Shown here: positions 13,201 to 48,519 of the stretch, piece after piece
How the letters are laid out: every line of letters starts with the position of its first letter
Numbering within the stretch: position 1 is the first letter of the stretch
Source of the DNA: Acidimicrobiia bacterium
GTDB lineage: Bacteria; Actinomycetota; Acidimicrobiia; IMCC26256; JAGPDB01
Assembly: GCA_018057765.1 (NCBI GenBank)
Contig: JAGPDB010000009.1
Span: forward strand, 126-64,125
Direction: 5' to 3'
Length of the DNA stretch: 64,000 bases
The notes under the pieces: model-generated
Seen by the model: the letters and a program-made list of their open reading frames with translations, nothing else
Database searches by the model: none
Told to the model about the DNA's origin: nothing
Translations under genes and position numbers: made by a program

Positions 13201-13326
13201 ATTATATTATCGGCATTTAAACTAACTCCTTGATAGATTCAATGTTTTTGAGCAAGAGTGATATTTGAAATATTACAATAATTTCGCAATATGAAAATCT
13301 ATTCGCTTTATACGCATAATCTATAA

Positions 13327-13578: not shown

Positions 13579-13667
13579 AGTTCTATTAAACCATGAGGGT
13601 GTGACAATTATTGTGTGAATGACACATTAATGCAGAAAATTCACTTTTTGTGTATTAATCTGGGGAA

Positions 13668-15611: not shown

Positions 15612-15639
15612 GACAAAAAATTACAAGAAGAATACAAGA

Positions 15640-15712
15640 TTACAAGGTCCGTCCTTGCAAATGCAGGGTCCGTCCTTGCAAGTGCAGGGTCCGTCCTTGC
15701 ATTCTTGCAAGG
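15640..15712 (+). repeat. Tandem hairpin repeat array (3 units, 21-bp period) ending in a terminator-like stem-loop
   Basis: GGTCCGTCCTTGCA occurs at 15646, 15667 and 15688. Each unit can fold as TGCA(A/G)GG-TCCGT-CCTTGCA. The array is followed by the perfect hairpin CCTTGCA-TTCT-TGCAAGG (15695-15712) plus CTTT. It starts 29 nt after the stop of the upstream gene. The first 22 nt are identical to 31185-31206. Confidence 0.8.
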
Positions 15713-15803
15713 CTTTAACGATGTAATACCGAGATAAACCGAAGGATATAGCATCTAAAAAGGCAATTAGTTTCATTTGATTTAATAAAACTAGAATAGA
15801 GTA

Positions 15804-16958: not shown

Positions 16959-16959
16959 T

Positions 16960-18012: not shown

Positions 18013-18028
18013 CTGTTAAAATATACTG

Positions 18029-19099
18029 ATGTCAAATATGAACGAGAACCAAACAAAAATTCCAGTAGTTAATATTTTATATGCGGGTGGCACAATTTCA
18101 TCATTGATGCATCCAGATGGTTATCGTGAAGGTGGCCATATGCTTGATCTACTCGAAATGTTAGTTGAAAAATATCCAGACGTTAAAGAACAACAAATTA
18201 TTGGCTTAACTCAAATTGCTTATACAGGTATGAGCGAAAACATTACGGAAAATGATCTACAAGATATTTTGACAACAATCAATCAGTCGATGCTTAATGA
18301 CCCTGATGGAATTGTAATTACCCATGGTACAGATGCAATGGAACAGACAGCTCGTGCAATCCAAAAAGAATATGCAAACGTATTGTTGAAGAATAAATGT
18401 GTAATTATTTTAACTGGATCAAATGATATAACTACTGATAACAATACTGACGCATGGGATAATTTTAATTTTGCTATAAGTAGAGCGGGCGCGGGTATGA
18501 AGCCCGGTGTTTATATTGCATTTCATGATCAGATTGTTCCAGCCAATGAAATTGTCAAAGAACCTTTCAACGGTATGGATATGGAATATGCTTCAGAAGT
18601 TTCTCCTGAATATTTAGCAAAAATTGAAAAATTGAATATTAAAAGAAAAGAACTAATAGATAAACTTACAGAATATTATTCTCCAATATTACAACGTAGC
18701 GATATCATTGACTACCCTGTAAACGTAATTCGAGCTAACCACAGTAAGCTTATTGAAGATATTGCTTTAGTAAAACCGACTGCGGTGTTAATGACTACTT
18801 ATCATACGACGTGTGTAAATGGAAATTCATCACACGCTGCAATTCCTGATTTAGTTGAAAAGCTAAATGAACTTGGAATCTTAGTATTTGGTGTAACTGA
18901 AAATGGAGAATCTATAGATTTTACACAATACGATTCAACAGTAAAATTAGGCAAAGCTGGTATGATTTCTCTCGAATCAATGGACCATGATGTTGCACTA
19001 GCAAAATTACAAATGCTTGATACAAAATTAACAAAAAAAGAAATTATTGCCGAAATGATTACAGATCGTTGTGGCGAACTTGCAGGAATAACCATTTAG
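18029..19099 (+). CDS. L-asparaginase/glutaminase family protein
   Basis: Asparaginase signatures YAGGTISS (TGGTI-type) and THGTDAMEQTA (HGTDT-type). Confidence 0.7.
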   Translation: MSNMNENQTKIPVVNILYAGGTISSLMHPDGYREGGHMLDLLEMLVEKYPDVKEQQIIGLTQIAYTGMSENITENDLQDILTTINQSMLNDPDGIVITHGTDAMEQTARAIQKEYANVLLKNKCVIILTGSNDITTDNNTDAWDNFNFAISRAGAGMKPGVYIAFHDQIVPANEIVKEPFNGMDMEYASEVSPEYLAKIEKLNIKRKELIDKLTEYYSPILQRSDIIDYPVNVIRANHSKLIEDIALVKPTAVLMTTYHTTCVNGNSSHAAIPDLVEKLNELGILVFGVTENGESIDFTQYDSTVKLGKAGMISLESMDHDVALAKLQMLDTKLTKKEIIAEMITDRCGELAGITI

Positions 19100-32263: not shown

Positions 32264-32566
32264 ATGACACAAATTACTAAAGAAGAGGTTGTCCATGTGG
32301 CAAATTTGGCGCGATTGAGTTTGACTGATGAAGAAATTGAGAAATTTGGAAAGCAGATGAGCGCAATTTTGGAACATGCCAGTGAAGTGAGCAAGATAGA
32401 TACTCAAGGTGTTGTGCCAACTTCACATCCGCTAAAGATGGAAAATGTATTACGCGAAGACGTAGTTGGACTATCCCTAACTCAAGAACAAGCTTTAAGT
32501 GGCGCACCTAATGCACAAGAAGGTCGATTTATGGTTCCTCAAATTTTAGATGCAGAAGAGAATTAA
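32264..32566 (+). CDS. gatC: Asp/Glu-tRNA amidotransferase subunit C
   Basis: ~100-aa protein starting ...EEVVHVANLARLSLTDEEIEKF..., directly upstream of gatA. Confidence 0.9.
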   Translation: MTQITKEEVVHVANLARLSLTDEEIEKFGKQMSAILEHASEVSKIDTQGVVPTSHPLKMENVLREDVVGLSLTQEQALSGAPNAQEGRFMVPQILDAEEN

Positions 32567-32567
32567 T

Positions 32568-34043
32568 ATGGTCAATTATTTTAATTTAACAGCAAGTGAA
32601 AAAATAGAAGAATTCAAAACAAATGATATAACTGCAATTCAAATAGTTGAACATGCTTTAGACGCTATAGAAAAAACAGAATCACAACTAGATGCTTTCT
32701 TAACAGTAATGACCAATGAGGCTAAAGCGCAGGCATTAGATATTGATTCGCGTAAAGCAACTGGTGAAAGACTCGGCGCATTGGCTGGAACTGTCATTGC
32801 TATCAAAGACAATATGGCAAGCCTTGACATTAAAACTACCTGTGGTTCAAAAATTTTGGAAAACTGGATTTCTCCTTATGATGCGAGCGTTGTTACAAAA
32901 TTGAAAAATGCGGATGCAATTATTATTGGTAAAACAAATATGGATGAATTCGCTATGGGTTCTTCAACAGAAAACTCCGCATTCAAAATTACAAAGAACC
33001 CTCATGATACTTCGCGCGTTCCCGGCGGTTCATCTGGTGGATCAGCTGCGGTAGTCGCAGCTGGAGTTGTCGATTTCTCATTGGGTTCAGATACCGGTGG
33101 CTCCATACGTCAACCTGCATCATTTACTGGTTTAGTTGGGGTCAAGCCAACCTATGGTCGAGTATCTCGCTATGGTCTGGTTGCCTTTGGCTCTTCACTT
33201 GACCAGATAGGACCATTTGCTCGTAACGTGAGTGATGCTGCATTATTGCTAGATGTTATAAGTGGTTATGATGATCGTGATTCAACATCAATCCAACAAA
33301 ACTATGATGCGCTAGTTGATAAAGTTAAAGATTCTAAAGGTATTTCTGGTTTAAGGGTAGGAATTATTTCTGAACTTGCAGGCCCAGAAGGTTTTCAAAA
33401 AGAAGTTCTTGATGCTTTTAATAAAACTGTACGAGAATTAGAAAACCAGGGCGCAAAAGTAGATAGTGTTTCTATCCCATCGGCAGCTTTCGGTATTAGT
33501 GCTTATTATATAATTGCTCCTGCTGAAGCTTCATCTAATTTAGCTCGTTTTGATGGTATGCGTTATGGATTGCGTGTTGAAGAATCGACATCAGCAAAAA
33601 CAAATGAAGCAACTCGTGAAGAAGGATTTGGCGAAGAAGTAAAACGTCGCATCATGTTAGGTACTTATGCTTTAAGTGCTGGTTATTATGATGCTTTTTA
33701 CGCGCAAGCACAAAAAGTTCGCACTGTTATGATGGCTGAATTCGCAAAAGCTTATGAGAACTTTGATGTGCTGTTATGTCCTACTACACCAACAACAGCA
33801 TTTAGCGTTGGTGCTAATGATGATGATCCAATGCAAATGTATCTGAATGATCTTTGTACAATTCCAACTAATTTAGTTGGTGCTTGTGCTATAAGTGTAC
33901 CGGTCGGGGTTGACGAAAACTCTTTGCCAATAGGTATCCAAGTATGTGCTCCGCCACTGGATGAAGAAGTTATTTTTGATGTTGCGAAAGCTATCGAGAG
34001 AACTTCTAATTACTCAACAAAACCACAAGTGTATGCATCTTGA
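32568..34043 (+). CDS. gatA: Asp/Glu-tRNA amidotransferase subunit A
   Basis: Amidase signature GGSSGGSAAVVAAG and GSDTGGSIRQPA. The ATG at 32568 lies 1 nt after the gatC stop; the ORF-track start at 32550 would overlap gatC. Confidence 0.93.
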   Translation: MVNYFNLTASEKIEEFKTNDITAIQIVEHALDAIEKTESQLDAFLTVMTNEAKAQALDIDSRKATGERLGALAGTVIAIKDNMASLDIKTTCGSKILENWISPYDASVVTKLKNADAIIIGKTNMDEFAMGSSTENSAFKITKNPHDTSRVPGGSSGGSAAVVAAGVVDFSLGSDTGGSIRQPASFTGLVGVKPTYGRVSRYGLVAFGSSLDQIGPFARNVSDAALLLDVISGYDDRDSTSIQQNYDALVDKVKDSKGISGLRVGIISELAGPEGFQKEVLDAFNKTVRELENQGAKVDSVSIPSAAFGISAYYIIAPAEASSNLARFDGMRYGLRVEESTSAKTNEATREEGFGEEVKRRIMLGTYALSAGYYDAFYAQAQKVRTVMMAEFAKAYENFDVLLCPTTPTTAFSVGANDDDPMQMYLNDLCTIPTNLVGACAISVPVGVDENSLPIGIQVCAPPLDEEVIFDVAKAIERTSNYSTKPQVYAS

Positions 34044-34081: not shown

Positions 34082-34516
34082 GTGTCGGATGAAAAAGTAA
34101 TAGATAAAGAAAATTTAGAAACTGAACAAAAAGAAAATAGTCCAATTCAAAATGGCAAACAAAAAAAGAAAAAACGGTTTATTGCTGCTGTAATAATAAT
34201 TGTTATTTTGTCATTGGGCGCGTTGTCGATATATTTATTGGACCCGGTCGCAAAAGTTGGATCTACTGTTTCAAAAGTAAAAGCACAAGCAAAAAAAGCA
34301 AGTGGTATCGACGAAATGCTCGATATGGAATATTATTTTAAGAGCGATGGATCTTTAGATAAAGCAAAAGTCGCTGATGTGCAATCAAAGGTGCCCCCAT
34401 TATTTAAAAACAAGATGCTAGAGGGTATGAAGAAAAGGATAGCCCTAGCAATAGAGAAAAAAGATATAACACGAAGACAAGGTGATGAACTAAGTAGTGC
34501 CCTCGGTATTGGCTGA
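34082..34516 (+). CDS. Hypothetical membrane-anchored protein
   Basis: GTG-start ORF with a Lys-rich N-terminus, a single TM helix (FIAAVIIIVILSLGALSIYLL) and a charged C-terminal part; no motif. Confidence 0.45.
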   Translation: MSDEKVIDKENLETEQKENSPIQNGKQKKKKRFIAAVIIIVILSLGALSIYLLDPVAKVGSTVSKVKAQAKKASGIDEMLDMEYYFKSDGSLDKAKVADVQSKVPPLFKNKMLEGMKKRIALAIEKKDITRRQGDELSSALGIG

Positions 34517-34568
34517 ACACAATATTGCTCGTTTGACGTAATAGTGGTTTATGTCTTAAAATAGTTTC

Positions 34569-35045
34569 ATGAGTTTGGAACCGAGAACATTAGGTTATAT
34601 TGATGATCAGAGAGTTATTCAATTAAAGAAGAATTTGAAAGAAAATAGTCCAAAATTTCGTGGAACTTTAAAAAAAGTAAAAGCAGTCATAAAACTTCTC
34701 GAAGCCTATAGAAAACACGATGGTATTGGAAATGAAGAAGAATTTAAGCCTCATTCTTTTAAGGATTTAATATCTGATTTCTCTGGTTTTAGAGCAATTT
34801 TACCAGAAGGTCAAAATGGAAAGACTAAAAGATTTGCTGGTATAGAAGCAATACTCGGCAAAGAGCTCGTATTGAAAATAGATTCAGATGCAAAAAAACT
34901 TAGCAGCATAGAAGGGTCAGCAGTTGAAATTGAAGTAAGAAAAATTTTTAGTGCTATTACAAAAGAACAAGAGTTCCAATTTTCTCGCCAAATAGATATT
35001 TTACAATCTTTGCTACCAGAGCAAGTTCAATCAGTCACCAGATAA
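34569..35045 (+). CDS. Hypothetical protein
   Basis: 158-codon ORF, Lys/Glu-rich, no recognised motif. Confidence 0.45.
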   Translation: MSLEPRTLGYIDDQRVIQLKKNLKENSPKFRGTLKKVKAVIKLLEAYRKHDGIGNEEEFKPHSFKDLISDFSGFRAILPEGQNGKTKRFAGIEAILGKELVLKIDSDAKKLSSIEGSAVEIEVRKIFSAITKEQEFQFSRQIDILQSLLPEQVQSVTR

Positions 35046-36732: not shown

Positions 36733-37725
36733 ATGAAAATGAAACAAACACTTATTATTGGAGCAGGTCATGCAGGTCAAAACCTACACTTGAAAACCTT
36801 AAAGAAACTAGAAATTAACACTTTGGTTGGGTTCGTTGATAATAATATAATAAAAAGTATACCCGGCATAAATAGAAAAAATATTTTCAAGAATTTGTCT
36901 AGTGTTGATGGATTTCCTGCTGATTCAACAGTGGTGCACATTTGTACTCCACCACAATCTCATAAAAAAATTATAGAAGAATTACTTCAGATGGGCTATA
37001 TGAATATCATTATTGAAAAGCCGATGTCAAACAATTACAAAGATGCAATTGATATTAATACTTTGATAATAGATTCGAATTCACAAGGAACAATTTTCGT
37101 CGTGGCAAATTGGTTGTACAGTAAAGTGATCTGGCATCTGAGAGACAAATTGAGTGACACAAAACTTGCTGTGTCCACAGTTAAGATGCAACAATCAAAA
37201 CCACGTTTCGAAAAGACCACATCAAATACTTACAAAGAGTCAATTTTTGACATTGAGATGCCTCACCTTGTAGTTCTTGCAATGTATCTTTTTGGTAAAG
37301 ATCTAAAATATAATATTTCTAAATGCGGAGATATGGTATATGAAAGTATTACATATAAAAACATGGGGTGGGCTACTTTAGAAATGGTATCAAGAGAAGG
37401 TTTTATAATAAATCTTGAAACATCATTAGTGTCTAAAAAAAGATCCAGAAAATTGGAGATTACTCTCGAAGACAAAAGTAAAATGATGTGTACTTTTCCC
37501 AGTGGGGGAGATGACAATTTTATATCTGAATTTCAATCTTGGACACCAAATGGTGAATTAATAGATTCAATCACATTCCAAGATGAGACATTATCAACAT
37601 TTATTTCAATGGCGTATGGAGCATTTAATGAAGAGGGAGCGGCGTTGATCAGCAATGGTGAACTAAACTTAGAAGTATGCAAAATGTTAGAAAAGGCAAA
37701 ATCGAATTCTATACATTGTCCGTAA
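36733..37725 (+). CDS. Gfo/Idh/MocA-family oxidoreductase
   Basis: N-terminal LIIGAGHAGQNLH dinucleotide-binding motif and the family-typical EKP motif (IIIEKPMSNN). Confidence 0.7.
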   Translation: MKMKQTLIIGAGHAGQNLHLKTLKKLEINTLVGFVDNNIIKSIPGINRKNIFKNLSSVDGFPADSTVVHICTPPQSHKKIIEELLQMGYMNIIIEKPMSNNYKDAIDINTLIIDSNSQGTIFVVANWLYSKVIWHLRDKLSDTKLAVSTVKMQQSKPRFEKTTSNTYKESIFDIEMPHLVVLAMYLFGKDLKYNISKCGDMVYESITYKNMGWATLEMVSREGFIINLETSLVSKKRSRKLEITLEDKSKMMCTFPSGGDDNFISEFQSWTPNGELIDSITFQDETLSTFISMAYGAFNEEGAALISNGELNLEVCKMLEKAKSNSIHCP

Positions 37726-37757
37726 GTAGCTGGGTCTACTCATTGAGTGAATAAAAT

Positions 37758-39035
37758 ATGAAAAATAAAGATTACATCATCGAAAACATCGATATTAACT
37801 TTAAAAAAGTTGTATTCCTTAAACCATTAAACTTAAGTAAAGGAAAGATTACTGAACTTAGCGAAGCAACCGTAACTGTGAACATAGTTGATCAAAATGG
37901 TTCTCAAGCTAGTGGTATAGGTTCAGTACTGCTTTCCTATCCCTGGGCCTGGCCCGATACCGAGTTAACTAACGAAGCTTGTGACGATACTTTGCGGATG
38001 GTTCTAAAAAAGATAATTGAATTTATAGACTGCAATAATAGATTTTTAAATCCTTTAGAAATGGGAATTGCTATTGATGAGCAGCTAGATGATATATTAT
38101 CTTCATTCGAACTTAATATTCCTAGATTAGCTGGGGCTATATGTGTTGCTCCTTTAGATGCTGCAATTCATGATGCTTGGGGAAAGTTACATGGTAAATC
38201 TGTATACAAAATGTATACGAAAGAATATCTTTATAAAGATCTTTCTGCTTATATAGGAAATATTGGTAATGGGATTTATCCGAGTGACTTATTTCTTGAA
38301 CAGCAGAATAAAAGTTCACTTATTCAACATGTCGTAGATATAGGTGCAGATTTAGATGAGCTATATTCCTCGATTACTAAAGAGAATATTAGATCTTTGA
38401 AAATTAAATGCTCGGGTTCGGATCCTTTAAGTGATGCTAGGCAGATACAAGAAATATATAAAATAGCAAAGAGCGCTGTACAAGATGGTTCTTTGTGTCT
38501 TTCATTAGATCCTAACGAAAGTTATACAGATATAGAATCCCTTATAGAGCTAATTGATAGATTAAATATAGATTCACCTGAGATTTATGATTCTATCCAA
38601 TATATTGAGCAACCTTTTTTACGAACTGTGAGGTTTGAAAAAGACCAATTACAAGTTATATCTGAAAGGATACCGTTGATAGCCGATGAAGGTTATACGC
38701 ATGTATCTGATCTTCCAGAATTGATGAATGAAGGTTGGTCTGGTATTGCTTTGAAGACGGCAAAGGGCATGACTCAATCTTTGTTGTCATATTCGTTTGC
38801 AAAAATTAGTAATAAATTTATCACATTACAAGATTTAACAAATGTCAATGATTCATTGCTTCAATCAGCATCGCTTGCATCACATCTATATCTCTCGACA
38901 CAAAATATCGAATGTAATTCAAGGCAATATTTACCAAATGAAAAATATTTTGTAGAAAATATTTTGCCTGATTTTATTCATACTTCAGACGGAACTATTC
39001 GTTTTGATAAATTGGAAAATGTAGGTATATATTGA
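37758..39035 (+). CDS. Enolase-superfamily enzyme, MLE subgroup (racemase/epimerase-type active site)
   Basis: Ordered barrel motifs: KxK (LKIKCSG), metal ligands DPNES, IEQP and ADEG, and a second catalytic Lys (IALKTAKG). This is the pattern of dipeptide epimerases and N-acylamino-acid racemases. Confidence 0.75.
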   Translation: MKNKDYIIENIDINFKKVVFLKPLNLSKGKITELSEATVTVNIVDQNGSQASGIGSVLLSYPWAWPDTELTNEACDDTLRMVLKKIIEFIDCNNRFLNPLEMGIAIDEQLDDILSSFELNIPRLAGAICVAPLDAAIHDAWGKLHGKSVYKMYTKEYLYKDLSAYIGNIGNGIYPSDLFLEQQNKSSLIQHVVDIGADLDELYSSITKENIRSLKIKCSGSDPLSDARQIQEIYKIAKSAVQDGSLCLSLDPNESYTDIESLIELIDRLNIDSPEIYDSIQYIEQPFLRTVRFEKDQLQVISERIPLIADEGYTHVSDLPELMNEGWSGIALKTAKGMTQSLLSYSFAKISNKFITLQDLTNVNDSLLQSASLASHLYLSTQNIECNSRQYLPNEKYFVENILPDFIHTSDGTIRFDKLENVGIY

Positions 39036-40024
39036 TGACGGATAAAATGGTATTTCCTCGAAAGTTAAAAGAAGGTTCTCAAGTAAGGGTAATTGCCCCA
39101 TCAAGTCCATTTAATCAAGTTGATCTTTCACAAAGAAAGACTATCGAGCGCGTATTAAAAGAATTAGGGCTTACTCTAACTTATGGTAAATATGTAGATT
39201 CTCAAAACAGCGAATGTTTAGTGGACCCAATACTCAGAGCCTCTGATTTGCATGAAGCATTTTTAGATCCAGATGTAGATTGCATTTTGGCGGCCATTGG
39301 CGGCTACAACTCGAAGGATTTATTGCCATATATTAAATGGGAGGTAGTCTCACAAAATCCAAAAATATTTTGTGGATTTTCTGACATAACTTTACTGCAA
39401 AATGTGTTTACACAAAAATTAGATATTGTTACTTATTCTGGTCCAATGTTATCAACATTCGGCATGGAACATCATAATGATCAAACTATAGATTGGTTTA
39501 AACAGTGTCTTTTTGATGAGTCTCCATATACTCTTTCAGCTTCAGAAACTTATTCAGATGATGAGTGGTGGTCGGATCAAGAAGATAGAAAATTATTGCC
39601 GTCTTCTTGGTGGGTAATAAATTCTGGAGAAAGTATTATGGGCAAAATCATTGGTGGAAATCTAACCACATTAAACTTACTTTTGGGAACTGATTATTTT
39701 CCAGAATTAGATGATACAATTGTATTTGTCGAAGATGATTACGAGTCTACATTAGATATTTTCATTCGAGATATAACCTCGTTAACGCAACATAGTAATT
39801 TCAGCGGAGTTAAAGCATTGATCATAGGTAGATTTCAGAATTCTAGCAATGTCGATCGTGATGATATAGCGAGCATGGTAAAGAGTAATCAAGTATTAGA
39901 TTCTATACCAGTTTTAGCTAATGTAGATTTTGGGCACACTTATCCTATGTTCACTTTTCCTATTGGGGGTATTGCCTCAATATCTTTTGATGATAACCCA
40001 AAAATAGTTATAGTGAAACATTAA
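39032..40024 (+). CDS. S66 serine peptidase (LD-carboxypeptidase LdcA / microcin-C immunity MccF family)
   Basis: Family motifs RVIAPSSP and AIGGYNS. Catalytic Ser is in GFSDITLL, Glu in VEDDYES and His in DFGHTYP. The start overlaps the upstream gene by 4 nt (ATGA). Confidence 0.85.
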   Translation: MMTDKMVFPRKLKEGSQVRVIAPSSPFNQVDLSQRKTIERVLKELGLTLTYGKYVDSQNSECLVDPILRASDLHEAFLDPDVDCILAAIGGYNSKDLLPYIKWEVVSQNPKIFCGFSDITLLQNVFTQKLDIVTYSGPMLSTFGMEHHNDQTIDWFKQCLFDESPYTLSASETYSDDEWWSDQEDRKLLPSSWWVINSGESIMGKIIGGNLTTLNLLLGTDYFPELDDTIVFVEDDYESTLDIFIRDITSLTQHSNFSGVKALIIGRFQNSSNVDRDDIASMVKSNQVLDSIPVLANVDFGHTYPMFTFPIGGIASISFDDNPKIVIVKH

Positions 40025-41432
40025 TCTTTTTTAGATCATCTAACCATGGTCGATAAAACTCTATGCTACTGCACAACTGAAATAAACTCGGTTCGTCTCC
40101 ATGTCTTGCAATGGCTTGTAAACCAATGGGCAACCCTGAGTTCGAAAATCCACATGGTATATTTGCAGCTGGATGACCGCTCAGGTTGAAAAGCCACGTA
40201 AAAATCATCCAGTCAACAGAATTATGTCTATTGATATATTGATCAGGAACAATTGAATGGGGTTTAATAGCTGCGATAGGCGAAGTCGGAGTGATGAGAA
40301 AATCGTAGTCAAACAACATATCTTCGACTTTGCTATAAGATTCTATACGGAGGTCATTAGCAGTCTTCAAGATATCAGATGTTATTTCTTTTCCTTTGTT
40401 AATCCAATATTTTCTACCCTCATCAATTAGGTCCCACTTTCTAATATTTTTTTCTTGTTCATGTAGGCCTGCATGAGCGTGACTGAATATCACATTAAAT
40501 GCTTCTTGAAATTTTAGATCTAGTTTTGGTTCGACAATTTCGACCTCATGACCATCTTTTGTAAGCGACATGATGGCAGCATCAATTCGATCTTTAACTT
40601 CTGGCTCAGCGGTACCAAAACCTAGATCACTACAATATGCAATCTTGTATTTTGTCTTTTTGCTTCTAGGAATAGACAGCGAATCACTAATTTTCAAATA
40701 CGTATGTGTATCTCCAGTGTTATAACCTGACATAGCATCTAACATTATGGAACTATCTCTAACGCTTCTAGTCATTGGGCCAGCTGATACTATATATTTG
40801 AGTGATGGATGTACTGCAACGTTAGGTATTCTTCCAAAGGTTGGCTTTAGTCCAAATATTCCAGACATAGAAGATGGAATTCTGATTGAACCTGCTGCAT
40901 CGCTACCATGAGCTATAGTACACATTCCTAATGCAATTGCAGTTGCAGCGCCTCCACTAGAACCACCTGATGAATACCTAGTGTCAAATGGGTTTAGTGA
41001 AGAAGGCATAATTCTGTTACTCGTGTCGCCTTTATAGCCGTATTCGCTTGTATTCGTTTTTCCTAAAAAAATAGCACCAAGGTTTATTAACCTTTTGACG
41101 AATTCTGCACTATTTTTAGCTATATCATTTTTATGGAGTAATGAACCACGAGTAAATAATTCATTTTCTACTGGTGTGAGATCCTTTACCGAAAAAGAGA
41201 TTCCACATAATATATTTTTTTCACCAGCCTGTATCTGTAATTCAGCCTTTTTTGCATCTTCGAGCGCACGTTCATGTGAAACACTTATATAAGCGTTGTA
41301 GATCGGGTTTAAAAGGTCAATGCGATCAAGCAACGTTTTAGTGACATCTACTGGGGAAAGAATTTTGGACTGGTATGCTTTTGACAATTCATCTATCGAT
41401 GCATACGCAATCCAATCTTCGTTTATAGACAT
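40008..41432 (-). CDS. Amidase-signature family amidohydrolase
   Basis: SFSVKDL (Lys), GGSSGGAATAIALG and GSDAAGSIRIPSSMSG (Ser-cisSer). It is a paralogue type of GatA but stand-alone. Confidence 0.85.
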   Translation of the reverse strand: MSINEDWIAYASIDELSKAYQSKILSPVDVTKTLLDRIDLLNPIYNAYISVSHERALEDAKKAELQIQAGEKNILCGISFSVKDLTPVENELFTRGSLLHKNDIAKNSAEFVKRLINLGAIFLGKTNTSEYGYKGDTSNRIMPSSLNPFDTRYSSGGSSGGAATAIALGMCTIAHGSDAAGSIRIPSSMSGIFGLKPTFGRIPNVAVHPSLKYIVSAGPMTRSVRDSSIMLDAMSGYNTGDTHTYLKISDSLSIPRSKKTKYKIAYCSDLGFGTAEPEVKDRIDAAIMSLTKDGHEVEIVEPKLDLKFQEAFNVIFSHAHAGLHEQEKNIRKWDLIDEGRKYWINKGKEITSDILKTANDLRIESYSKVEDMLFDYDFLITPTSPIAAIKPHSIVPDQYINRHNSVDWMIFTWLFNLSGHPAANIPCGFSNSGLPIGLQAIARHGDEPSLFQLCSSIEFYRPWLDDLKKINVSL

Positions 41433-42467
41433 TTATATGTCACCTAGTGTAAGGGGTTGGCGTAGATTTTGACTTAGTTGTTGCTCATTGCCAAAGAGTA
41501 TATATGTACCACCTGTATGTAGTAAAATCACATTGGAATCTTTTACGATCTTTCCTTCTTCAATAAGTTGATTTAGCCCAAGCATAGCTTTACCCATGTA
41601 AACAGGATCAATGAGTAATCCATGGTTGCGACCAGCATCAACTACAGCTTGTACTACCTGATCATCATACTGATTATAACCTCCACATACAGCTCCATCA
41701 TGAGTTTCGAAATGTGATTGACTCCTTACAGTAGAGGGAATGTCGGCATATTTTTCTAGATCATCAAGAATAGCCAGATACTTTGATTCGAAAAAAGAAT
41801 TATCTTCTAAAACACAAATGCCTGTTAAATTCCATGGTCGATTTAACATGGTCGTCCCTGCTAATAATCCAGTATGCATGCCTCCTGATCCGGTAGGAAA
41901 AACTATGTGGTCAAAGTTTGTACCGATTTCAGCTTCTTGAGCGGCTAATTCTTTAGCCATGTCAATATACCCTAAGCTACCACGCCAATCTGATGAACCT
42001 GGTGGTAATAAGTATGGTTTTTTGCCTTCTACTTTAAGTCTTTCTACTAATTCATCTAGATGATGTTCAATGTTTGTCCACTCGCTACCTGGTAGTTTTT
42101 TGACTTTAGCTCCCATTAGCAAATCTATTAAGTAGTTTCCATTTGCTTCAGGCATAGGTTCAAAATCGCATACTATAAGTTCACATTTGATTCCAAGCCT
42201 ACGAGCATATATAGCTACTGCTTTGCATTGGTTCGAATTTGATCCGCCGGCTGTAACAACTGTGTCAGAATTCGTATTTATAACATCAGCTAATACATAT
42301 TCTAGTTTTCTTACTTTATTACCAGACGAATATGCATCTAGCTCAGACTCATATTTTATCCAAATATTTACCCCTAATTCATCAGATAGGGTATCATTTC
42401 TTTCCAAGCGTGTAGGCGCATGCGACAGAGAAAGGCGCCCAATACCATTATAAGACTGGTGCATCAT
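41433..42467 (-). CDS. PLP-dependent enzyme of the ACC deaminase / D-cysteine desulfhydrase family
   Basis: Family-defining PLP-lysine motif SSGNKVRKLEYVL. N-terminal ...APTRLER...LGVNIWIKYES and C-terminal LHTGG. Confidence 0.8.
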   Translation of the reverse strand: MMHQSYNGIGRLSLSHAPTRLERNDTLSDELGVNIWIKYESELDAYSSGNKVRKLEYVLADVINTNSDTVVTAGGSNSNQCKAVAIYARRLGIKCELIVCDFEPMPEANGNYLIDLLMGAKVKKLPGSEWTNIEHHLDELVERLKVEGKKPYLLPPGSSDWRGSLGYIDMAKELAAQEAEIGTNFDHIVFPTGSGGMHTGLLAGTTMLNRPWNLTGICVLEDNSFFESKYLAILDDLEKYADIPSTVRSQSHFETHDGAVCGGYNQYDDQVVQAVVDAGRNHGLLIDPVYMGKAMLGLNQLIEEGKIVKDSNVILLHTGGTYILFGNEQQLSQNLRQPLTLGDI

Positions 42468-43800
42468 TTGTCCAACTTCTTAAGTATTCGAAAAAATTAA
42501 GCTCTCCTACAGCAGCACTTAAAGGTAACTCTTGAAAATGAATAGATAATTCTTCGAGCTTTACTCCAGGTTTACATTCAGATACGAGTTCTATTGGCGG
42601 TCTTTCTAGCTCTAAGACTCCTGCAATCCATCCGGATCGCGTCTTTAATGTCATATCATCTAGTGCTTGGCTAGCATCATGTGCAATCATAGGAAGATAC
42701 TCATTTTGACTTGGACCCCCCAACACTTTTACGCCTGGCAATATAGATATGGCTAAAAATCCAAGAGTTAGATTTGGCATTATCTCACCATCTCTTAATG
42801 CCTTGCTTATACATTCTCTGTTAAATGGTATAGGCGCTTCTCCACGACCAAGTTCTATCAACTCATTGTTTATTAACTTTAATGGTCTGAGTCTTCCTTC
42901 TCGAATACGCCAAAAATGGTCTGTAGTATTTGGTAACGCCTTCGCATTAGCATCTGTGTGAGAGTCTTGCAGCTTCATCCATCTGCTACGGGTATCTTCA
43001 TCGAACAATAGGGTGCAAAGTTCATGTGAGTTAGTTTCTATATGTAGTGCGATTAATTCCGCCACTAATCTATCATCTGTATAGACCGGCAGCACTTCGT
43101 TATCTGTATCCCATTTTCTTGAAATTGCAGTATTTGCTGTGATAAAAGCATCTGCTGGTGAAGAAAATAGTCCTCCAAATTTACTTGATGTAAAGCTTTT
43201 TACTGTATCTTGAATTTCTTTAAATTCAGTACGGATTTTTTCAGAGAGAATGTTCTGAGCACCGTCCCACAGAAATTCAACTGCTCTTGCAGTTGACCCA
43301 ACCATCATTTTCGACATTTTATTTGAACTAATTCCAAATATACTTATTTTTTGACCATCGATATCTAAGTAACCAGGCCCAACACCTGAACGAGTTTTCA
43401 TCGTAACCGTGCTTGAAGCATTGACGAAAGTAAATCTTTGGCCAGTTCCTTTAGCTCCGATTCGTGATATGAGATTTGTAGAGAAGGTCGCGGGGTCAAG
43501 TATTAGCTGTAAGTGATCAGCTGTCTGCATCACAGGAGTCTCTCGAAACTGTTCCATTGCAACTTTTGCAGCTTTATCACCATATTGGAAAATAGCCCAT
43601 TTTTCCATAACCGTTATGAACATTTCTCTTGCATCGATTTCTCTAGATGTTGGTTCATGCCCATCATTTTCATAAAGAGATACAGCGTATTGTCCGAGAG
43701 TCATTTCTGGATTGTCGATCAAAAAATCGGCAGTGGTAGGCGATACTTCTGCCAATGCCTGTAGTCTTTTGCTCGCGTCACTACCTTCTTCATACTGCAT
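42448..43800 (-). CDS. Hypothetical protein (450 aa), no recognisable domain
   Basis: Long intact ORF with normal amino-acid composition. It overlaps the downstream PLP-enzyme gene by 20 nt and lies 13 nt after the upstream ORF, so it is in an operon. Confidence 0.6.
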   Translation of the reverse strand: MQYEEGSDASKRLQALAEVSPTTADFLIDNPEMTLGQYAVSLYENDGHEPTSREIDAREMFITVMEKWAIFQYGDKAAKVAMEQFRETPVMQTADHLQLILDPATFSTNLISRIGAKGTGQRFTFVNASSTVTMKTRSGVGPGYLDIDGQKISIFGISSNKMSKMMVGSTARAVEFLWDGAQNILSEKIRTEFKEIQDTVKSFTSSKFGGLFSSPADAFITANTAISRKWDTDNEVLPVYTDDRLVAELIALHIETNSHELCTLLFDEDTRSRWMKLQDSHTDANAKALPNTTDHFWRIREGRLRPLKLINNELIELGRGEAPIPFNRECISKALRDGEIMPNLTLGFLAISILPGVKVLGGPSQNEYLPMIAHDASQALDDMTLKTRSGWIAGVLELERPPIELVSECKPGVKLEELSIHFQELPLSAAVGELNFFEYLRSWTNDAPVL

Positions 43801-43813
43801 GTTGTACTTATTC

Positions 43814-45031
43814 CTATATCGACTTTAACCATTGGTTAAGTGTGTTGTAATGTCCTTGTGAAAATATACTTTCTTTTGAATTTAATGGCTTTTCAAATGC
43901 AGAAAAAAATGTATTTTCTATTTCATCGAATGGAATGTCTATTAGATCTGAATTTTCTCCATAATAACCGGTGAGTGTTGCTTTTGTATATGCCTCTAGA
44001 TTTTCCTTTATAGCTTTGCTTGCTTCTTCATATCTTTTAGCGCCTGGTATCACGATGTCTGCAGGTGTCAATGCAGATGATAAATTTGCAAATGTTTCAG
44101 CTATGAACTGGTCTACATTTAGTGTTTGCTCTATGGTTAATGCTCGACGATCACCTAGATCATGCATAAAAGTATTTCCTGTTCTTGTCAGTGACATATT
44201 CCCAAAATGACGGAATGGTGCTACCAGGCCACTTTTATGCATAGTGCTCATCGCGTTTGCACGTCTGGTCAATACTTGTTTCATTGGCGAAAAATTTTTG
44301 TTGGAACTTAGCTCTGTTAATGCTTCATAGTAAGGAGTATCTCTACCTGGAATCAATTCAGGTAGTCCTAAAACGACATATCCGAATTGATCACCGTCAA
44401 ATGAGCCATTTTCAAATTCACCCCAAGCAATTGCAAGCGGTACTTCGACATTTGTGCCTTCCATTCTTTTTGAGGCTTCTCTGCAAAATATGAATTCATT
44501 AACAGCTTCGCACATAGTGCAATATCCAGATGCTTCTTGCGGAAGCTGAAACCCTCGTAGGTAAGAGTCCTTGTCTGCGAAATAGTATTCAGATCTCCAA
44601 CCCACACCGCCATAACTTTTTGGTGGTACAGCTTCATCAAATACAACACCTTTTACTTGTAAAGAAACTACGGGGTTTATCGCTTTGCCGTCAAGTATAT
44701 CTATTGGTTTTTCTAAATCGAACCAGACTGATCGTGTCTCGTAGTCGGGTATACGGTTTTTACCAATTATTTCTTTTAATTTTGATTTGTCATTGGAGCT
44801 GATTTCGATTTCTTCATTTAAATAAAAGGTCGATTTTCTATCTGTGTCTAAACTCTCGTAAAGTGTGTTTACCTTAGCTTCAGCCGTTGCAGTATCTAAA
44901 TGCCAGTTCGCATGTACTGCTGGATGGAAGGAGGGGCCTCCAAAGTTGGGCATCATTCGGTCATTTATTCTTTTCATGCCAGATTGCCCTTTTTTTCGTA
45001 TATAGCTTGTTATCTCCTTAAATATTGCCAC
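43814..45031 (-). CDS. Hypothetical protein (405 aa), no recognisable domain
   Basis: Long intact ORF, first gene of the minus-strand operon. It contains a CxxC...C patch (GYCTMCEAVNEFIFC) and RHFGN...HDLGD, neither of which matches a family I can name. Confidence 0.6.
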   Translation of the reverse strand: MAIFKEITSYIRKKGQSGMKRINDRMMPNFGGPSFHPAVHANWHLDTATAEAKVNTLYESLDTDRKSTFYLNEEIEISSNDKSKLKEIIGKNRIPDYETRSVWFDLEKPIDILDGKAINPVVSLQVKGVVFDEAVPPKSYGGVGWRSEYYFADKDSYLRGFQLPQEASGYCTMCEAVNEFIFCREASKRMEGTNVEVPLAIAWGEFENGSFDGDQFGYVVLGLPELIPGRDTPYYEALTELSSNKNFSPMKQVLTRRANAMSTMHKSGLVAPFRHFGNMSLTRTGNTFMHDLGDRRALTIEQTLNVDQFIAETFANLSSALTPADIVIPGAKRYEEASKAIKENLEAYTKATLTGYYGENSDLIDIPFDEIENTFFSAFEKPLNSKESIFSQGHYNTLNQWLKSI

Positions 45032-45263
45032 AAAGTGTTGGTATTTGCAAACCAGTATTCAAAATAACCTTAAATTAATTAATATAATTCCTGGTATTCC
45101 GCAATTTGATCGGGAGTCTTGCATTAAATCTATTTTTTAGCTAAATTACTCTAATTGTTGTCAGTTATGTCCGTTAAACGTGGAATCTACAATATTACTA
45201 CTATTCTACATCAATCGTACTATTGTGATAGAATTGAAAAATGACAAAACGGATGTTAAATGT

Positions 45264-46937
45264 ATGAGTGGTAAAGTTTCCTGGCTTGAAGATATCGCAG
45301 ATCGTACCATTTCAAACATTAACCCTCAAGGAAAGACAATTATTTGTGCTTCGGGCATATCGCCCTCTGGTCACATTCATTTAGGCAATATGAGGGAATT
45401 AATGACCCCACATTTAGTGGCTGAAACAATAATCGCTAGAGGTCTTAATGCTGAACATGTTCTTTTTTGGGATGATTTTGATTCTCTGAGGAAAGTTCCT
45501 GCAGGACAACCAGATTGGCTTCATGAGCATATCGGCAGACCCTTAACTTCAATACCTGACCCTAATGGTCAATATGTATCTTATGCAGATTCGTTTATTG
45601 CAGAGTTCGAAAGAGGCATAAAAGATTTACAAATTCCGATCAGGGTAATCAGGCAATCCGAAGAATACCTGAATGGATCCTATTCTGAATTAGTACGACT
45701 TGCAATGGCTGAACGAGAAAAAATATCAAGAATTATAGATGAGAGTAAGACTGGTTTTAAACAAAAAGCTGACGCACCTTTACAACCTGAAGGAGAATAT
45801 TTCCCATTTAAACCTTATTGTGAAATCGATGATTATGCAAGCGATATAACTAGTTACAATGATGACACTTCTGAAATGACCTATTGCTGCCCAAATTGTA
45901 ACCATAATGGTACTATGTCGCTCTATGATACACCATTAAGAGGCAAACTATCATGGAAAGTAGACTGGCCGATGAGATGGTCTAAGTATGGTATCGATTT
46001 CGAACCCGGAGGAATGGATCATGCAACACCAGGTAGTAGCTTTTCTGTAGGCAAACGTCTAGTAGCCGAAATATTTGGAGGTACTCCTCCAGAGTTTGTT
46101 GGGTATTCTTTTGTCGGAAGAAAAGGTTATTCTTCTAAAATGTCAAGTTCACGTGGCGATGGGATAACACCAGATACAATTTTAAATTATATAGAGCCGG
46201 CAATGCTCCGTTGGATGTATGCCAAAAGAAGTCCGAGTAGCTCATTCGAAATTGATCTGTCAGCTGGCGGAATTCGAGGTGAATATGATAGGTGGGATGC
46301 AGCTAATAGAAAAAGCGTAAGTAATTCGGGCGCAGACGATGGTGCTATAGATTTATCTGTTAAAACTTCAGCCGGAGATGTTCCTTACTCGATACCTGCT
46401 TTACGGTTTTCTGCACTTGCTTCAACTCTAGATATGGTACATGGTGATGTTGATCGAGCATTATCAATAATTTTGCAATCTCTAAAACCTGATACAGAGA
46501 TAAAAGATATCGATTCGATAGCTATAAGAATCGATAGGGCGTTGAGATTTATTGAAGAGATTTTGCCGGCAAGTGAGAGAATTGTGGTTCAGGATGAGTT
46601 TGACCACGATTATTACGAAGGGATTTCTGAAGTTAATAGAGTCGGTTTAGCATTACTTGTTTCTGGAATTGATGAGCATAGAAATACTGTAGCTGAGCTG
46701 GAATTATTTATTTATTCAATACCAAGACTAATAAATGAGATTCCTATGGATGCTCCTAAATCAGATGAACTAAAAGTTGCTCAATCAGCATTCTTTAAAG
46801 ATGTATACCAGCTTATATTAGGTAAAGATCGAGGACCAAGACTCTCTACGTTGTTAAGTACATTAGATACAAATAAGTTGGAGTCGCTTGTTAGCTGTCC
46901 TGTAACTATATCTCCTATTTCTGCTCAGCATTTATAG
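45264..46937 (+). CDS. lysK: Class I (archaeal-type) lysyl-tRNA synthetase
   Basis: N-terminal WLEDIADR...ASGISPSGHIHLGNMRE (HIGH-equivalent HxGN typical of class I LysRS), LFWDDFDSLRKVP, and KMSKS-equivalent SKMSSSRG. ATG at 45264 is preferred over the GTG at 45180. Confidence 0.85.
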   Translation: MSGKVSWLEDIADRTISNINPQGKTIICASGISPSGHIHLGNMRELMTPHLVAETIIARGLNAEHVLFWDDFDSLRKVPAGQPDWLHEHIGRPLTSIPDPNGQYVSYADSFIAEFERGIKDLQIPIRVIRQSEEYLNGSYSELVRLAMAEREKISRIIDESKTGFKQKADAPLQPEGEYFPFKPYCEIDDYASDITSYNDDTSEMTYCCPNCNHNGTMSLYDTPLRGKLSWKVDWPMRWSKYGIDFEPGGMDHATPGSSFSVGKRLVAEIFGGTPPEFVGYSFVGRKGYSSKMSSSRGDGITPDTILNYIEPAMLRWMYAKRSPSSSFEIDLSAGGIRGEYDRWDAANRKSVSNSGADDGAIDLSVKTSAGDVPYSIPALRFSALASTLDMVHGDVDRALSIILQSLKPDTEIKDIDSIAIRIDRALRFIEEILPASERIVVQDEFDHDYYEGISEVNRVGLALLVSGIDEHRNTVAELELFIYSIPRLINEIPMDAPKSDELKVAQSAFFKDVYQLILGKDRGPRLSTLLSTLDTNKLESLVSCPVTISPISAQHL

Positions 46938-46991: not shown

Positions 46992-47124
46992 TTAAACTAT
47001 AGCCATGACAACAACACAACAAAAAGCAATGAACCAAGCTACTGCACACCTCGAAACTGGTTATGAAGCTGTTATAGGCTTAGAGGTCCACGTAGAGCTC
47101 GCAACAAACACAAAGCTTTTTTGT
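46992..47124 (+). repeat. Right copy of the gatB-5' direct repeat (functional copy)
   Basis: See 35076-35208. The shared core CACCTCGAAACTGG(c/t)TATGAAGCTGTTATAGGCTT is at 47047-47081 and 35131-35165. Confidence 0.8.
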
Positions 47125-48519
47125 TCATGTGCAAATAATTTTGGTTCTGAACCTAACACTAATACTTGTCCTGTTTGTTTGGCCTTACCTGGCGCGTTGC
47201 CGGTATTAAACGAAAAGGTTGTTGAATATGCATTGCGTATTGGTGAAGCTCTTGAATTCAATGTTCCTACACGCTCTATCTTTCATCGTAAAAACTATTT
47301 TTATCCCGATATGCCTAAAAACTTTCAGACTTCACAATACGACGAACCAATATGTATGGACGGTAAGTTAGATATTGTTACTTCGCTTGGTGAAAAAACT
47401 ATTCGTATAGAGCGCGCACACATGGAAGAGGATACTGGTAAGTCATCTCATATTGGCGAATCAGGTCGTATCCATGGTGCTGATTATTCTTTGGTTGATT
47501 ATAATCGTGCTGGTGTTCCTTTGATGGAAATCGTTTCGCGACCCGACATTTCAAATTCAGAAGAAGCTCGTGCTTATGTTTCTGAATTGCGTGCTGTTTT
47601 AAAAACTATTGGTGTTAGTGACGTGAAAATGGAAGAGGGCTCAATGCGAGTTGATGCCAATGTTTCTGTTCGGCCTATTGGTCAAGAAGAATTGGGTACC
47701 CGTGCTGAAATAAAAAATATGAATTCATTGCGTTCACTTGGTCGTGCTGTTGATTATGAAATTATGCGCCAAATCGAACGTGTTAAAAGCGGAGAAAAGA
47801 TTGTTCAAGAAACGCGTCATTGGAATGAGAATGATGGCGAGACTTCATCTATGCGTTCTAAAGAAGAAGCTAATGACTATCGTTATTTCCCAGAACCAGA
47901 TTTAGTTCCAGTTGTTCCAACAGCTGAAATGAGGAAATCTGTACACGATTCTATGCCTGAACTACCAAATGCGAAACGTGAAAGAATAGTAAACGAATGG
48001 TCAATATCGCAAGCTGATGCTCGTACTTTGATATCTAATGTTGAAATGTTTGACCTTGTTGATGGTGCTATAAAAATTGGTGGTGTTTCTATTGCTAAAG
48101 ATGCAACTAATTTTGTGATCATAGAAATTGCTTCGATTCTTAATGAGAGTGGCGAAGAATTAGATAGTCTAAAAATTACTTCTACGAATCTTTCTGATGT
48201 TTGTACAATGATTTCTAATGGCGATATTTCTCGTAATCAGGCAAAGACTTTGATTTCTAAACTTGCTAGTGATGGTGGGGATGCAAAAGTATTGGCAGAT
48301 GTATTAGGTTTGAAACAAGTAAGCGATACAGGTGCACTTGAATCAATTATAGATAGCGTTTTCGCAGAGTTTTCTGATGATGTTGCAAGTTATGCTGATG
48401 CTGATGAAGTAAAGCAAAAGAAATTGCAGGGTTTCTTAATGGGTAAAGCTATGGCTGCTTCTAAAGGTCAGGGTAATCCTCAACTCTTCAATAAAATCAT
48501 TTCTGAAAAACTTAAATAG
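47005..48519 (+). CDS. gatB: Asp/Glu-tRNA amidotransferase subunit B
   Basis: N-terminal YEAVIGLEVHVEL, CPVCLALPGALPVLN and RAHMEEDTGKS, with a C-terminal GatB/YqeY domain. Full length (504 aa). Confidence 0.95.
   Translation: MTTTQQKAMNQATAHLETGYEAVIGLEVHVELATNTKLFCSCANNFGSEPNTNTCPVCLALPGALPVLNEKVVEYALRIGEALEFNVPTRSIFHRKNYFYPDMPKNFQTSQYDEPICMDGKLDIVTSLGEKTIRIERAHMEEDTGKSSHIGESGRIHGADYSLVDYNRAGVPLMEIVSRPDISNSEEARAYVSELRAVLKTIGVSDVKMEEGSMRVDANVSVRPIGQEELGTRAEIKNMNSLRSLGRAVDYEIMRQIERVKSGEKIVQETRHWNENDGETSSMRSKEEANDYRYFPEPDLVPVVPTAEMRKSVHDSMPELPNAKRERIVNEWSISQADARTLISNVEMFDLVDGAIKIGGVSIAKDATNFVIIEIASILNESGEELDSLKITSTNLSDVCTMISNGDISRNQAKTLISKLASDGGDAKVLADVLGLKQVSDTGALESIIDSVFAEFSDDVASYADADEVKQKKLQGFLMGKAMAASKGQGNPQLFNKIISEKLK

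Follow-up and report, generated by a model that had tools for sequence, protein, structure and literature searches.

A cluster of seven genes at positions 36,733 to 45,031 of a 64,000-nt stretch of DNA from an Acidimicrobiia bacterium (contig JAGPDB010000009.1 of assembly GCA_018057765.1; the whole stretch is called the window in what follows) proved to be a real, rare and horizontally spread gene cluster and not a chance assembly, since the gene set recurs across phyla. It combines known enzyme folds with two orphan protein families, designated unk405 and unk450, and represents an undescribed pathway, as the defining features of the murein-recycling pair, of microcin C, of the tiarins and of the CuyAB system all failed to apply to it. 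An earlier note, made from the sequence alone, had likewise mapped these genes onto no named pathway, and this stood: neither of the two findings named beforehand as speaking against it, a lack of co-occurrence in other genomes and a match of both orphans to well-characterised families, occurred. We read the region as one functional unit that would make or process a non-proteinogenic amino acid, probably D-configured and beta-substituted, handled as an amide or peptide conjugate, and assign to this reading a probability of roughly 0.45. Gene content, conservation, catalytic residues and co-occurrence were observed directly; from them we infer the substrate, the order and direction of the steps, and the roles of both orphans.

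The plus-strand unit of the cluster opens with a GFO/IDH/MocA oxidoreductase (36733-37725, 330 aa), followed by an MLE-like protein of the enolase superfamily (37758-39035, 425 aa) and an S66 serine peptidase (39032-40024, 330 aa). The minus-strand operon begins with unk405 (43814-45031) and continues with unk450 (42448-43800, around 450 aa, soluble), a pyridoxal phosphate (PLP) enzyme of the PALP family (41433-42467, 344 aa) and, as its last gene, an amidase (40008-41432, 474 aa). Both operons converge and their 3' ends overlap by 17 nt. A gap of 13 nt separates unk405 from unk450, unk450 and the PLP enzyme gene overlap by 20 nt, and the latter abuts the amidase gene (0 nt). The overlap between the MLE-like and S66 genes amounts to 4 nt with a TTG start. 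It shrinks to 1 nt if, as in the output of gene callers, translation begins at the ATG at 39035, which is the likelier start. In public gene calls unk405 starts at M19 (44977; 387 aa), and its true start is probably either this residue or M26 (44956). The open reading frame (ORF) positions, motifs and tight spacing of the earlier note were all reproduced, and its domain assignments were upheld by Pfam and NCBIfam, with the qualification that the MR_MLE_C score of the enolase-type protein remained under the gathering score.

The most complete counterpart was found in a myxobacterial metagenome-assembled genome (MAG) of the Polyangiaceae (locus L005, 68% G+C), in which amidase, GFO, MLE-like protein, unk450, PALP, an MFS protein, an ATP-grasp protein and unk405 lie on one strand, the six counterparts of window genes having been placed there by tblastn. 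This locus, the only one found in a scan of 185,579 species genomes, shares six of the seven window genes, the missing one being that of the S66 peptidase. Its ATP-grasp protein matches the BacD and DdaF ligase models and resembles L-amino-acid ligases, and its MFS protein matches the efflux model YdeE. Four further loci came from metagenomes. L001 (50% G+C) carries unk380, a B12-dependent radical S-adenosylmethionine (SAM) protein, unk446 and PALP. L003 (57% G+C) presents, in this order, a class I lysyl-tRNA synthetase (LysRS), a TonB-dependent receptor, small ORFs, unk394, an SsuA-type binding protein with the ATPase and permease of an ATP-binding cassette (ABC) system, a B12 radical-SAM protein, unk457 and PALP. 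In L020 (74% G+C), small ORFs, unk398 and an SsuA-type ABC system are divergent from a 292-aa protein without match, DAO, PhyH, unk458 and PALP, and L004 (74% G+C, a 5.1-kb contig) holds a small ORF, unk383 and an SsuA-type ABC system before the contig ends. The genes therefore co-occur outside the present genome, six of them in the Polyangiaceae MAG and the trio of unk405, unk450 and PALP in further loci. This trio is the invariant core, with 30-47% identity over the full length across loci of 36-74% G+C, and the PALP homologue directly follows the unk450 homologue in L001, L003, L005 and L020. Scanning metagenomes with the unk450 profile yielded no match at first, a second scan returned only the Polyangiaceae contig again, and a third homologue search made no addition.

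These loci bear on the least credible of the explanations considered, random accretion of genes without a common pathway between gatA and gatB. Accretion would agree with the interruption of the gatCAB arrangement by the block, with the membership of several of the proteins in very large families and with a scan of the cluster region in which promoter and terminator signals did not exceed the expectation from shuffled sequence; it is refuted by the joint occurrence of six of the seven genes in another phylum, and is also at odds with the trio in five loci, the overlapping or abutting genes and an arrangement that was identical in 10 independent assemblies carrying identical GatB (the 10 contigs listed).

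A small ORF of 45-56 aa was located directly upstream of the unk405 homologue in L001 (1345-1494), L003 (9702-9869), L004 (453-623) and L020 (3827-3964, minus strand). The encoded peptides share the C-terminal motif ...RR(L/Q)..T.M.KCG...KEPSKV and, to judge by their sequences, look like the precursor of a ribosomally made and post-translationally modified peptide (RiPP) or a scaffold peptide. A six-frame hidden Markov model (HMM) search with the peptide profile found all four loci (E 1e-17 to 1e-25), and the gene was absent from the window and from L005 by both regular-expression and six-frame HMM searches. The class-B radical-SAM proteins scored best with models of the PhpK family P-methyltransferase, of RiPP C-methyltransferases and of ApyD, in each case far under the cut-off. 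The core is accordingly seen in two architectures: a peptide-associated one, with the peptide gene, a radical-SAM protein (or DAO and PhyH) and an ABC importer, and a window-type one, with amidase, GFO and MLE-like protein accompanied by S66 (window) or by ATP-grasp and MFS proteins (L005). A cross-phylum module in two architectures is the pattern seen when one small molecule has different routes.

The PLP enzyme is predicted to be a beta-eliminating lyase and was placed, by its sequence, in the fold-type II group that comprises 1-aminocyclopropane-1-carboxylate (ACC) deaminase, D-cysteine desulfhydrase, CuyA and XcbE. It matched Pfam PALP with 133 bits and contains the motif GNKVRK49. Its best NCBIfam model was the D-cysteate sulfo-lyase CuyA (E 1.4e-72; 244 bits against a cut-off of 450), and the remaining models also scored under their cut-offs (XcbE 196/450, DcyD 175/429, ACC deaminase 165/392 and TIGR01275 231/289 bits); since the cut-off of no named member was reached, the enzyme forms a separate clade within the group. 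Beta-elimination is the chemistry known from the group, with DcyD and CuyA as its catabolic examples. The best structural matches in the PDB were D-Cys desulfhydrase 7ysk (3e-48) and Salmonella DcyD (1e-40). In a HMMER alignment to 4d8t/4d97 the equivalents of N50, K51, S78, N79, Y287 and T315 of StDcyD were conserved (GNK, SN, DPVY and HTGG), residues that are listed as catalytic in StDcyD, Y287 being the base that deprotonates D-substrates (PMC11193023). XcbE is a biosynthetic C-S lyase of bacterial coenzyme M synthesis (PMC9457059), and this PLP group is thus able to act biosynthetically. In the XcbD/XcbE pair the lyase immediately follows the substrate-forming enzyme, which parallels the fixed order of unk450 and PALP; the likeness ends with the low XcbE score given above and with the lack of an aspartase/fumarase-type XcbC or XcbD and of ComA here.

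The enolase-type protein contains the motifs KIK215-217, DPNES251, IEQP283, ADEG309 and LKTAKG332, and residues K215/K217, D251, E284, D310 and K333 were conserved in its L005 homologue (31% identity). With strands assigned by motif spacing, it shows the pattern of the MLE subgroup, that is, KxK on strand 2, Asp/Glu/Asp metal ligands and a second Lys on strand 6. The MR_MLE_C score was 26.2 bits (gathering score 29.4), the curated cut-offs of DgcA (25 against 400 bits) and muconate cycloisomerase (21.5 against 335 bits) were missed, and no enolase-superfamily structure in the PDB, dipeptide epimerases included, was matched at E<=1 with either the single sequence or a profile. It appears to be a highly divergent member of the superfamily that retains the two-lysine racemase/epimerase residues. 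The GFO protein matched Pfam PF01408 (GFO_IDH_MocA) with 46.8 bits and displays a GAGHAG dinucleotide motif at residue 10; the L005 operon encodes a homologue with 27% identity (E 2e-39). The amidase matched PF01425 with 314.5 bits, and its motifs for the Ser-cisSer-Lys triad (K83, GGSSGG156 and GSIRIP181) place it among the amidase-signature enzymes; it fell under every NCBIfam equivalog cut-off, and its homologue heads the L005 operon (34% identity, E 3e-60). Among plasmid-borne sequences, the one closest to the MLE-like protein (28% identity) was seen on a Nitratireductor plasmid (L027, 4305-10981), where its neighbours are a GFO oxidoreductase, a sugar-phosphate isomerase, an NAD epimerase, a DHDPS-family enzyme and a TTT transporter, a context from which the pairing of GFO and enolase-type proteins may be an older catabolic two-gene unit.

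In the S66 protein both the N and C domains of Pfam Peptidase_S66 were found, together with the Ser/Glu/His motifs GFSD115, VEDDYE233 and FGHT300. Its best PDB matches were the 'MccF-like' protein BA_5613 of B. anthracis (4e5s, 2.8e-85), peptidase S66 5usd and the Listeria 'MccF-like' protein Lmo1638 (4h1h, 4.7e-83), followed by MccF (1e-39) and LdcA (6e-22); the LdcA equivalog NF008424 gave 111.9 bits against a cut-off of 378. By its sequence the protein therefore falls in the MccF-like clade of BA_5613 and Lmo1638 and is not an LdcA orthologue; MccF itself is a known immunity peptidase (PMC8323819). No S66 homologue was present in L001, L003, L004, L005 or L020, which leaves S66 as the sole gene of the seven without counterpart in related loci. 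These data make it very unlikely that the cluster extends murein tetrapeptide recycling, with an LD-carboxypeptidase (LdcA) and an L-Ala-D/L-Glu dipeptide epimerase whose products are handled by the amidase and a D-amino-acid lyase, and the murein-peptide scavenging that the earlier note had offered as its first reading was not supported. The S66 fold, the MLE-subgroup catalytic residues, the translational coupling of both genes and the D-amino-acid-specific group of the PLP enzyme are shared with such a scheme. For the peptidase, however, the match to MccF-like proteins (1e-85) surpasses that to LdcA by 60 orders of magnitude, and none of the related loci encodes it, whereas L005 retains the MLE-like gene; the enolase-type protein resembles no solved Ala-Glu epimerase even by profile, and radical-SAM, ATP-grasp, MFS and precursor-peptide partners would be out of place.

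The two large proteins that the earlier note had found unrecognisable remained so, both as sequences and as profiles, in Pfam, NCBIfam, PDB, PADLOC and PHROGs. For unk450 this held with a 58-member profile; a match of a 3-sequence profile to MiD51 (E 1.2) was dropped, as it was gone with the larger one. The protein belongs to a sizeable orphan family, nearly all of whose members measure around 450 aa. When 1.84 billion representatives were scanned by HMMER with the profile, 545 sequences were retrieved at E<=1e-3, of which 195 reached 1e-10 and 70 reached 1e-30, and a homologue search of 5.8 billion proteins returned two clusters only. Residues Y38, H96, G141-P142, N223, F296-W297 and G361-G362-x-x-Q365-x-x-Y368 were conserved family-wide. 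An AlphaFold2 model was unusable (pLDDT 38), the 2-sequence alignment being too shallow. Relatives from Pyrinomonadaceae, Kofleriaceae, Polyangiaceae and Sorangium are named only 'hypothetical protein', as are the homologues found on 147 plasmids, mostly conjugative, of Rhizobium, Sinorhizobium and Agrobacterium.

Members of the unk450 family lie in small biosynthesis-like operons with MFS, GNAT, methyltransferase or nonribosomal peptide synthetase (NRPS) neighbours. In the rhizobia, a SAM methyltransferase and a GNAT stand beside traI/luxR quorum-sensing genes, or an MFS pump is present (A. tumefaciens pAt, L023 7208-10906; S. meliloti pSymA, L025 6910-10003; also L024 and L026). An unk450 homologue was also found in an NRPS cluster (L017, 1372-14978) with a 3737-aa synthetase, an MFS_3 pump, a Leu/Phe-tRNA protein transferase homologue, HAD, a CmcI methyltransferase, two 2-oxoglutarate (2OG) oxygenases and an aminotransferase. 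One relative overlaps a class I/II aminotransferase gene with a phosphopantetheinyl transferase (PPTase) gene nearby, the Sorangium relative (unk464) has TauD and MFS neighbours, another (unk463) a BKACE neighbour, and for one close homologue the neighbours were uninformative. The Leu/Phe-tRNA transferase of L017 is a second hint of aminoacyl-tRNA involvement around the family. With at least 545 representatives at 50% identity in the absence of any Pfam model, structure or name, with a spread over Myxococcota, Acidobacteriota, Acidimicrobiia and the 147 rhizobial plasmids, and with a compact operon in which it stands beside predictable chemistry, unk450 here offers a testable entry point to its orphan family.

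unk405 is a very rare orphan protein. The search of 5.8 billion proteins gave three homologue clusters, one of them the window's own, and three more were found by context, which makes six known loci in all; no plasmid match was obtained. Its invariant residues are K127 (in LQVKG), E175/E179, R274-H275-x-x-N278 and H290-D291-L292-G293-D294. This set looks like the Lys/Glu/Asn/DFG of kinase-like folds, except that an invariant Phe occupies the position of the catalytic Asp, and hhalign paired RH..N...HDLGD with the catalytic loop and DFG of the window's PknB; the alignment was not significant (E 0.1, probability 0.6%, with unrelated controls at E 0.28 and 0.38), so that a kinase fold was rejected as an assignment and the resemblance may serve as a lead only. 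The AlphaFold2 model of this protein was also unusable (pLDDT 37; a 3-sequence alignment, too shallow).

In the pathway that we favour, the biosynthesis or processing of an unusual amino acid, unk405 is possibly an ATP-using activating enzyme, and unk450 is encoded by a gene translationally coupled to that of the PLP enzyme. The PLP enzyme would abstract the alpha-proton from a D-configured (or achiral) amino acid and eliminate its beta-substituent, and the enolase-type racemase or epimerase would set the alpha-carbon configuration that this requires. The GFO protein could contribute an NAD(P)-dependent oxidoreductase step and the amidase could open or remove a carboxamide; these two and the enolase-type protein are additions to the core in this genome and in the myxobacterium. 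The S66 peptidase might cleave an aminoacyl or peptidyl amide bond, for maturation or for self-protection. The direction is most likely biosynthetic, because variable tailoring enzymes surround a fixed trio, because the L005 operon adds an ATP-grasp ligase and an efflux-type MFS protein, because a precursor-like peptide and a B12 radical-SAM methyltransferase accompany the core elsewhere, and because exporters, GNATs and NRPS surround unk450 relatives. Several points weigh against this reading. The window cluster has no ligase, exporter or precursor peptide, and its two hydrolases and deaminating lyase read as degradative. Most PLP enzymes of this family that have been characterised act in catabolism (DcyD, ACC deaminase, CuyA), and the SsuA-type binding-protein-dependent ABC importer of related loci fits uptake. 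The host is a low-G+C member of the Acidimicrobiia with the cluster in all 10 listed identical-GatB contigs, which core nutrition would fit equally, and GFO, amidase and PALP, each from a very large family, are only 27-36% identical to their myxobacterial counterparts.

Some of these observations would suit catabolism or salvage, the main rival explanation and a serious one, though less probable, in which a peptide- or amide-linked beta-substituted (e.g. sulfonated or thiolated) amino acid is degraded. The S66 peptidase and amidase would release the amino acid, the enolase-type racemase would convert it to the D-form, and the PLP lyase would yield a 2-oxo acid, ammonia and the beta-leaving group. 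CuyA is the best NCBIfam model of the PLP enzyme, which retains the D-specific catalytic Tyr; a racemase that supplies a D-specific beta-lyase is moreover an established catabolic arrangement, the D-cysteate sulfo-lyase CuyA working with the racemase CuyB in Bilophila and Ruegeria (PMC11193023). The PLP enzyme shares with CuyA the fold-type II group and the catalytic Lys, Ser-Asn, Tyr and Thr. Related loci encode SsuA-family (aliphatic sulfonate) binding proteins with an ABC ATPase and permease, L003 also the TonB-dependent receptor, the window cluster has hydrolases without ligase or exporter, and the distant MLE-like homologue of L027 lies with GFO in a transporter-rich, catabolic-looking cluster. 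The CuyA score, however, is far under the cut-off, at about half of its value, and the racemase is of the enolase superfamily and not of the Asp/Glu-racemase type to which CuyB belongs (PF01177). The CuyB/CuyA system offers nothing that corresponds to four further conserved genes, two of which encode orphans, and no sulfite exporter is present here. The ATP-consuming ligase and efflux-type MFS of the myxobacterial operon also speak against degradation, the B12 radical-SAM methyltransferase and precursor-like peptide fit it poorly, unk450 relatives occur in NRPS-type, PPTase-containing and exporter-associated loci, and the window cluster itself lacks a transporter. If degradation were nevertheless correct, it would point to a dissolved organic nitrogen or sulfur compound, so far unrecognised, on which an Acidimicrobiia lineage recovered in many metagenome assemblies draws.

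The divergent neighbour of the cluster is a class I LysRS gene (45180-46937, plus strand), separated from unk405 by an AT-rich intergenic region (45032-45263, from reading of the sequence), whose promoter-like matches were no more than shuffling predicts, and followed after 67 nt by gatB on the same strand (47005-48519). Public gene calls start LysRS at M29 (557 aa), and the true start is probably 45264, which gives this length. The protein scored 305.9 bits with TIGR00467 (cut-off 147.55), and its HLGN67 and KMSSS320 correspond to the HIGH and KMSKS signatures; it is a bona fide class I enzyme. L003 encodes a class I LysRS that is 41% identical to that of the window and stands 4.3 kb from the unk405 homologue. 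In this part of L003 (2415-5737), ParA-like and HTH_36 genes precede it with hardly any gap, a context that looks accessory or mobile, not housekeeping. For a normally single-copy gene, a position beside the module in two distant loci is unlikely to arise by chance, which is an estimate and not a computed statistic. LysRS was not seen in L005, nor in the shorter L001, L004 and L020.

On this basis a Trojan-horse LysRS inhibitor or lysine antimetabolite was considered, with the class I LysRS as insensitive copy and the S66 protein as immunity peptidase of the MccF type; we regard it as rather unlikely. It is equally doubtful that the trio defines a new antimetabolite class occurring in two forms and targeting LysRS, with S66 as second immunity device and unk405 and unk450 as new warhead-forming families; one form may derive from the ribosomal precursor peptide and the B12 radical-SAM enzyme, and the other may be a free amino acid or dipeptide made via racemase, dehydrogenase, amidase and ATP-grasp ligase. 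The proposal draws on the class I LysRS that adjoins the module in two loci, with only 34-47% identity between their cluster proteins, on the accessory-looking setting of one of them, with its ParA and HTH genes, and on the reported lower sensitivity of LysRS1 to lysine analogues as compared with LysRS2 (PMC1475646). Cluster-borne aminoacyl-tRNA synthetase (aaRS) copies, GNATs and S66 peptidases also have precedents as immunity devices in agrocin 84, albomycin, microcin C and the tiarins (PMC8323819; bioRxiv 10.64898/2025.12.02.691738), and the genes found beside unk450 relatives (MFS, GNAT and SAM transferase) are reminiscent of the mcc accessory set. On the other side, the window LysRS directly precedes gatB with both signatures intact and may be the sole housekeeping enzyme of this Acidimicrobiia genome, as some Actinobacteria (Streptomyces) use LysRS1 as their only LysRS (PMC1475646); no second LysRS was found within the 64-kb window. 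The lack of LysRS in the loci named above, the absence of precursor peptide and exporter from the window and the absence from the cluster of a ThiF-like MccB, a TfxB/TfxC dehydrogenase and a nucleotide-handling enzyme argue in the same direction, and a literature search on LysRS self-resistance in biosynthetic clusters found nothing. The second reading of the earlier note, biosynthesis combined with self-protection, gained backing in part: the ligase and MFS of the myxobacterial operon, the MFS, GNAT, methyltransferase and NRPS neighbours of unk450 relatives and the second LysRS-adjacent locus agree with it. Were the LysRS link true, lysine would join the short list of amino acids with natural Trojan-horse aaRS inhibitors, and the patchy distribution of class I LysRS in bacteria would have a physiological reason.

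Likenesses to described antimetabolite systems were partial. With microcin C (MccA-F) and other Trojan-horse aaRS inhibitors (agrocin 84, albomycin; PMC8323819) the cluster has in common an MccF-like S66 protein, an adjoining aaRS gene, the MFS, GNAT and SAM-transferase neighbours in relatives and a small peptide gene in related loci. In contrast to microcin C, there is no heptapeptide MccA or evident nucleotide chemistry here; no ThiF domain was detected in 36.7-45.0 kb, and the only ThiF gene of the window is of the MoeB/rhodanese type (8290-9429). The core of unk405, unk450 and PLP lyase is, in turn, not known from the mcc, agn and abm clusters. The tiarins and trifolitoxin (bioRxiv 10.64898/2025.12.02.691738) share a RiPP-type precursor, a cluster-borne aaRS presumed to confer immunity, GNATs, rhizobial replicons and, as a further listed feature, the unexplained phosphotransferase TfxG. 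Unlike them, the present systems lack TfxB/TfxC, the family-defining dehydrogenases that depend on FMN, and the conserved Gln core (no nitroreductase-type domain was found in the window cluster, L001, L003 or L020), and the peptide motif differs and is missing from the window.

L-amino-acid ligases build dipeptide antibiotics such as bacilysin (BacD/BacE), dapdiamide (DdaF), tabtoxin and rhizocticin. L005 resembles these systems in pairing an ATP-grasp protein that matches BacD and DdaF with an MFS pump; the warhead-forming enzymes of those pathways are absent, and the window has neither ligase nor pump.

The window is ordinary chromosome, with genes for a PASTA Ser/Thr kinase, ligA, lipB-lipA, an arg operon (argC, argJ, argD, argB), ilvD and cyclic di-GMP signalling proteins. 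A block of about 13 kb parts gatC and gatA (32264-34043) from gatB; besides the cluster it contains two small ORFs, the gene of an NDP-sugar dehydrogenase and that of the class I LysRS. Both small ORFs (34082-35045; 144 aa with one predicted membrane helix, and 158 aa) lie between gatA and the NDP-sugar dehydrogenase and had no family match. The label of island used for this block in the earlier note is not backed by base composition (33-38% G+C across the cluster against 36% for the whole window), although the block does sit between gatCA and gatB. A look-up by GatA for strain variants without the block returned no record, and population dN/dS was uninformative, the 10 related assemblies being nearly identical. 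Rfam and tRNA scans detected no element in the region and no T-box in 45032-45263.

Some minor observations concern the surroundings. In L005, type VI secretion genes (two DUF2169 and VgrG; 11300-19000) come directly after the operon. Further orphans lie inside related clusters, namely a 769-aa protein of L003 (18590-20899) and the 292-aa protein of L020 (4620-5498); neither matched Pfam, PADLOC or PHROGs, nor did the former match NCBIfam. Within the window, a single 591-aa ORF (1155-2930) is an apparent fusion of a LipB catalytic domain with radical-SAM LipA. Two large CHASE/PAS-GGDEF-EAL signalling proteins (3030-5435 and 10108-13200) exceed the regulatory capacity expected of an extremely streamlined marine actinobacterium.

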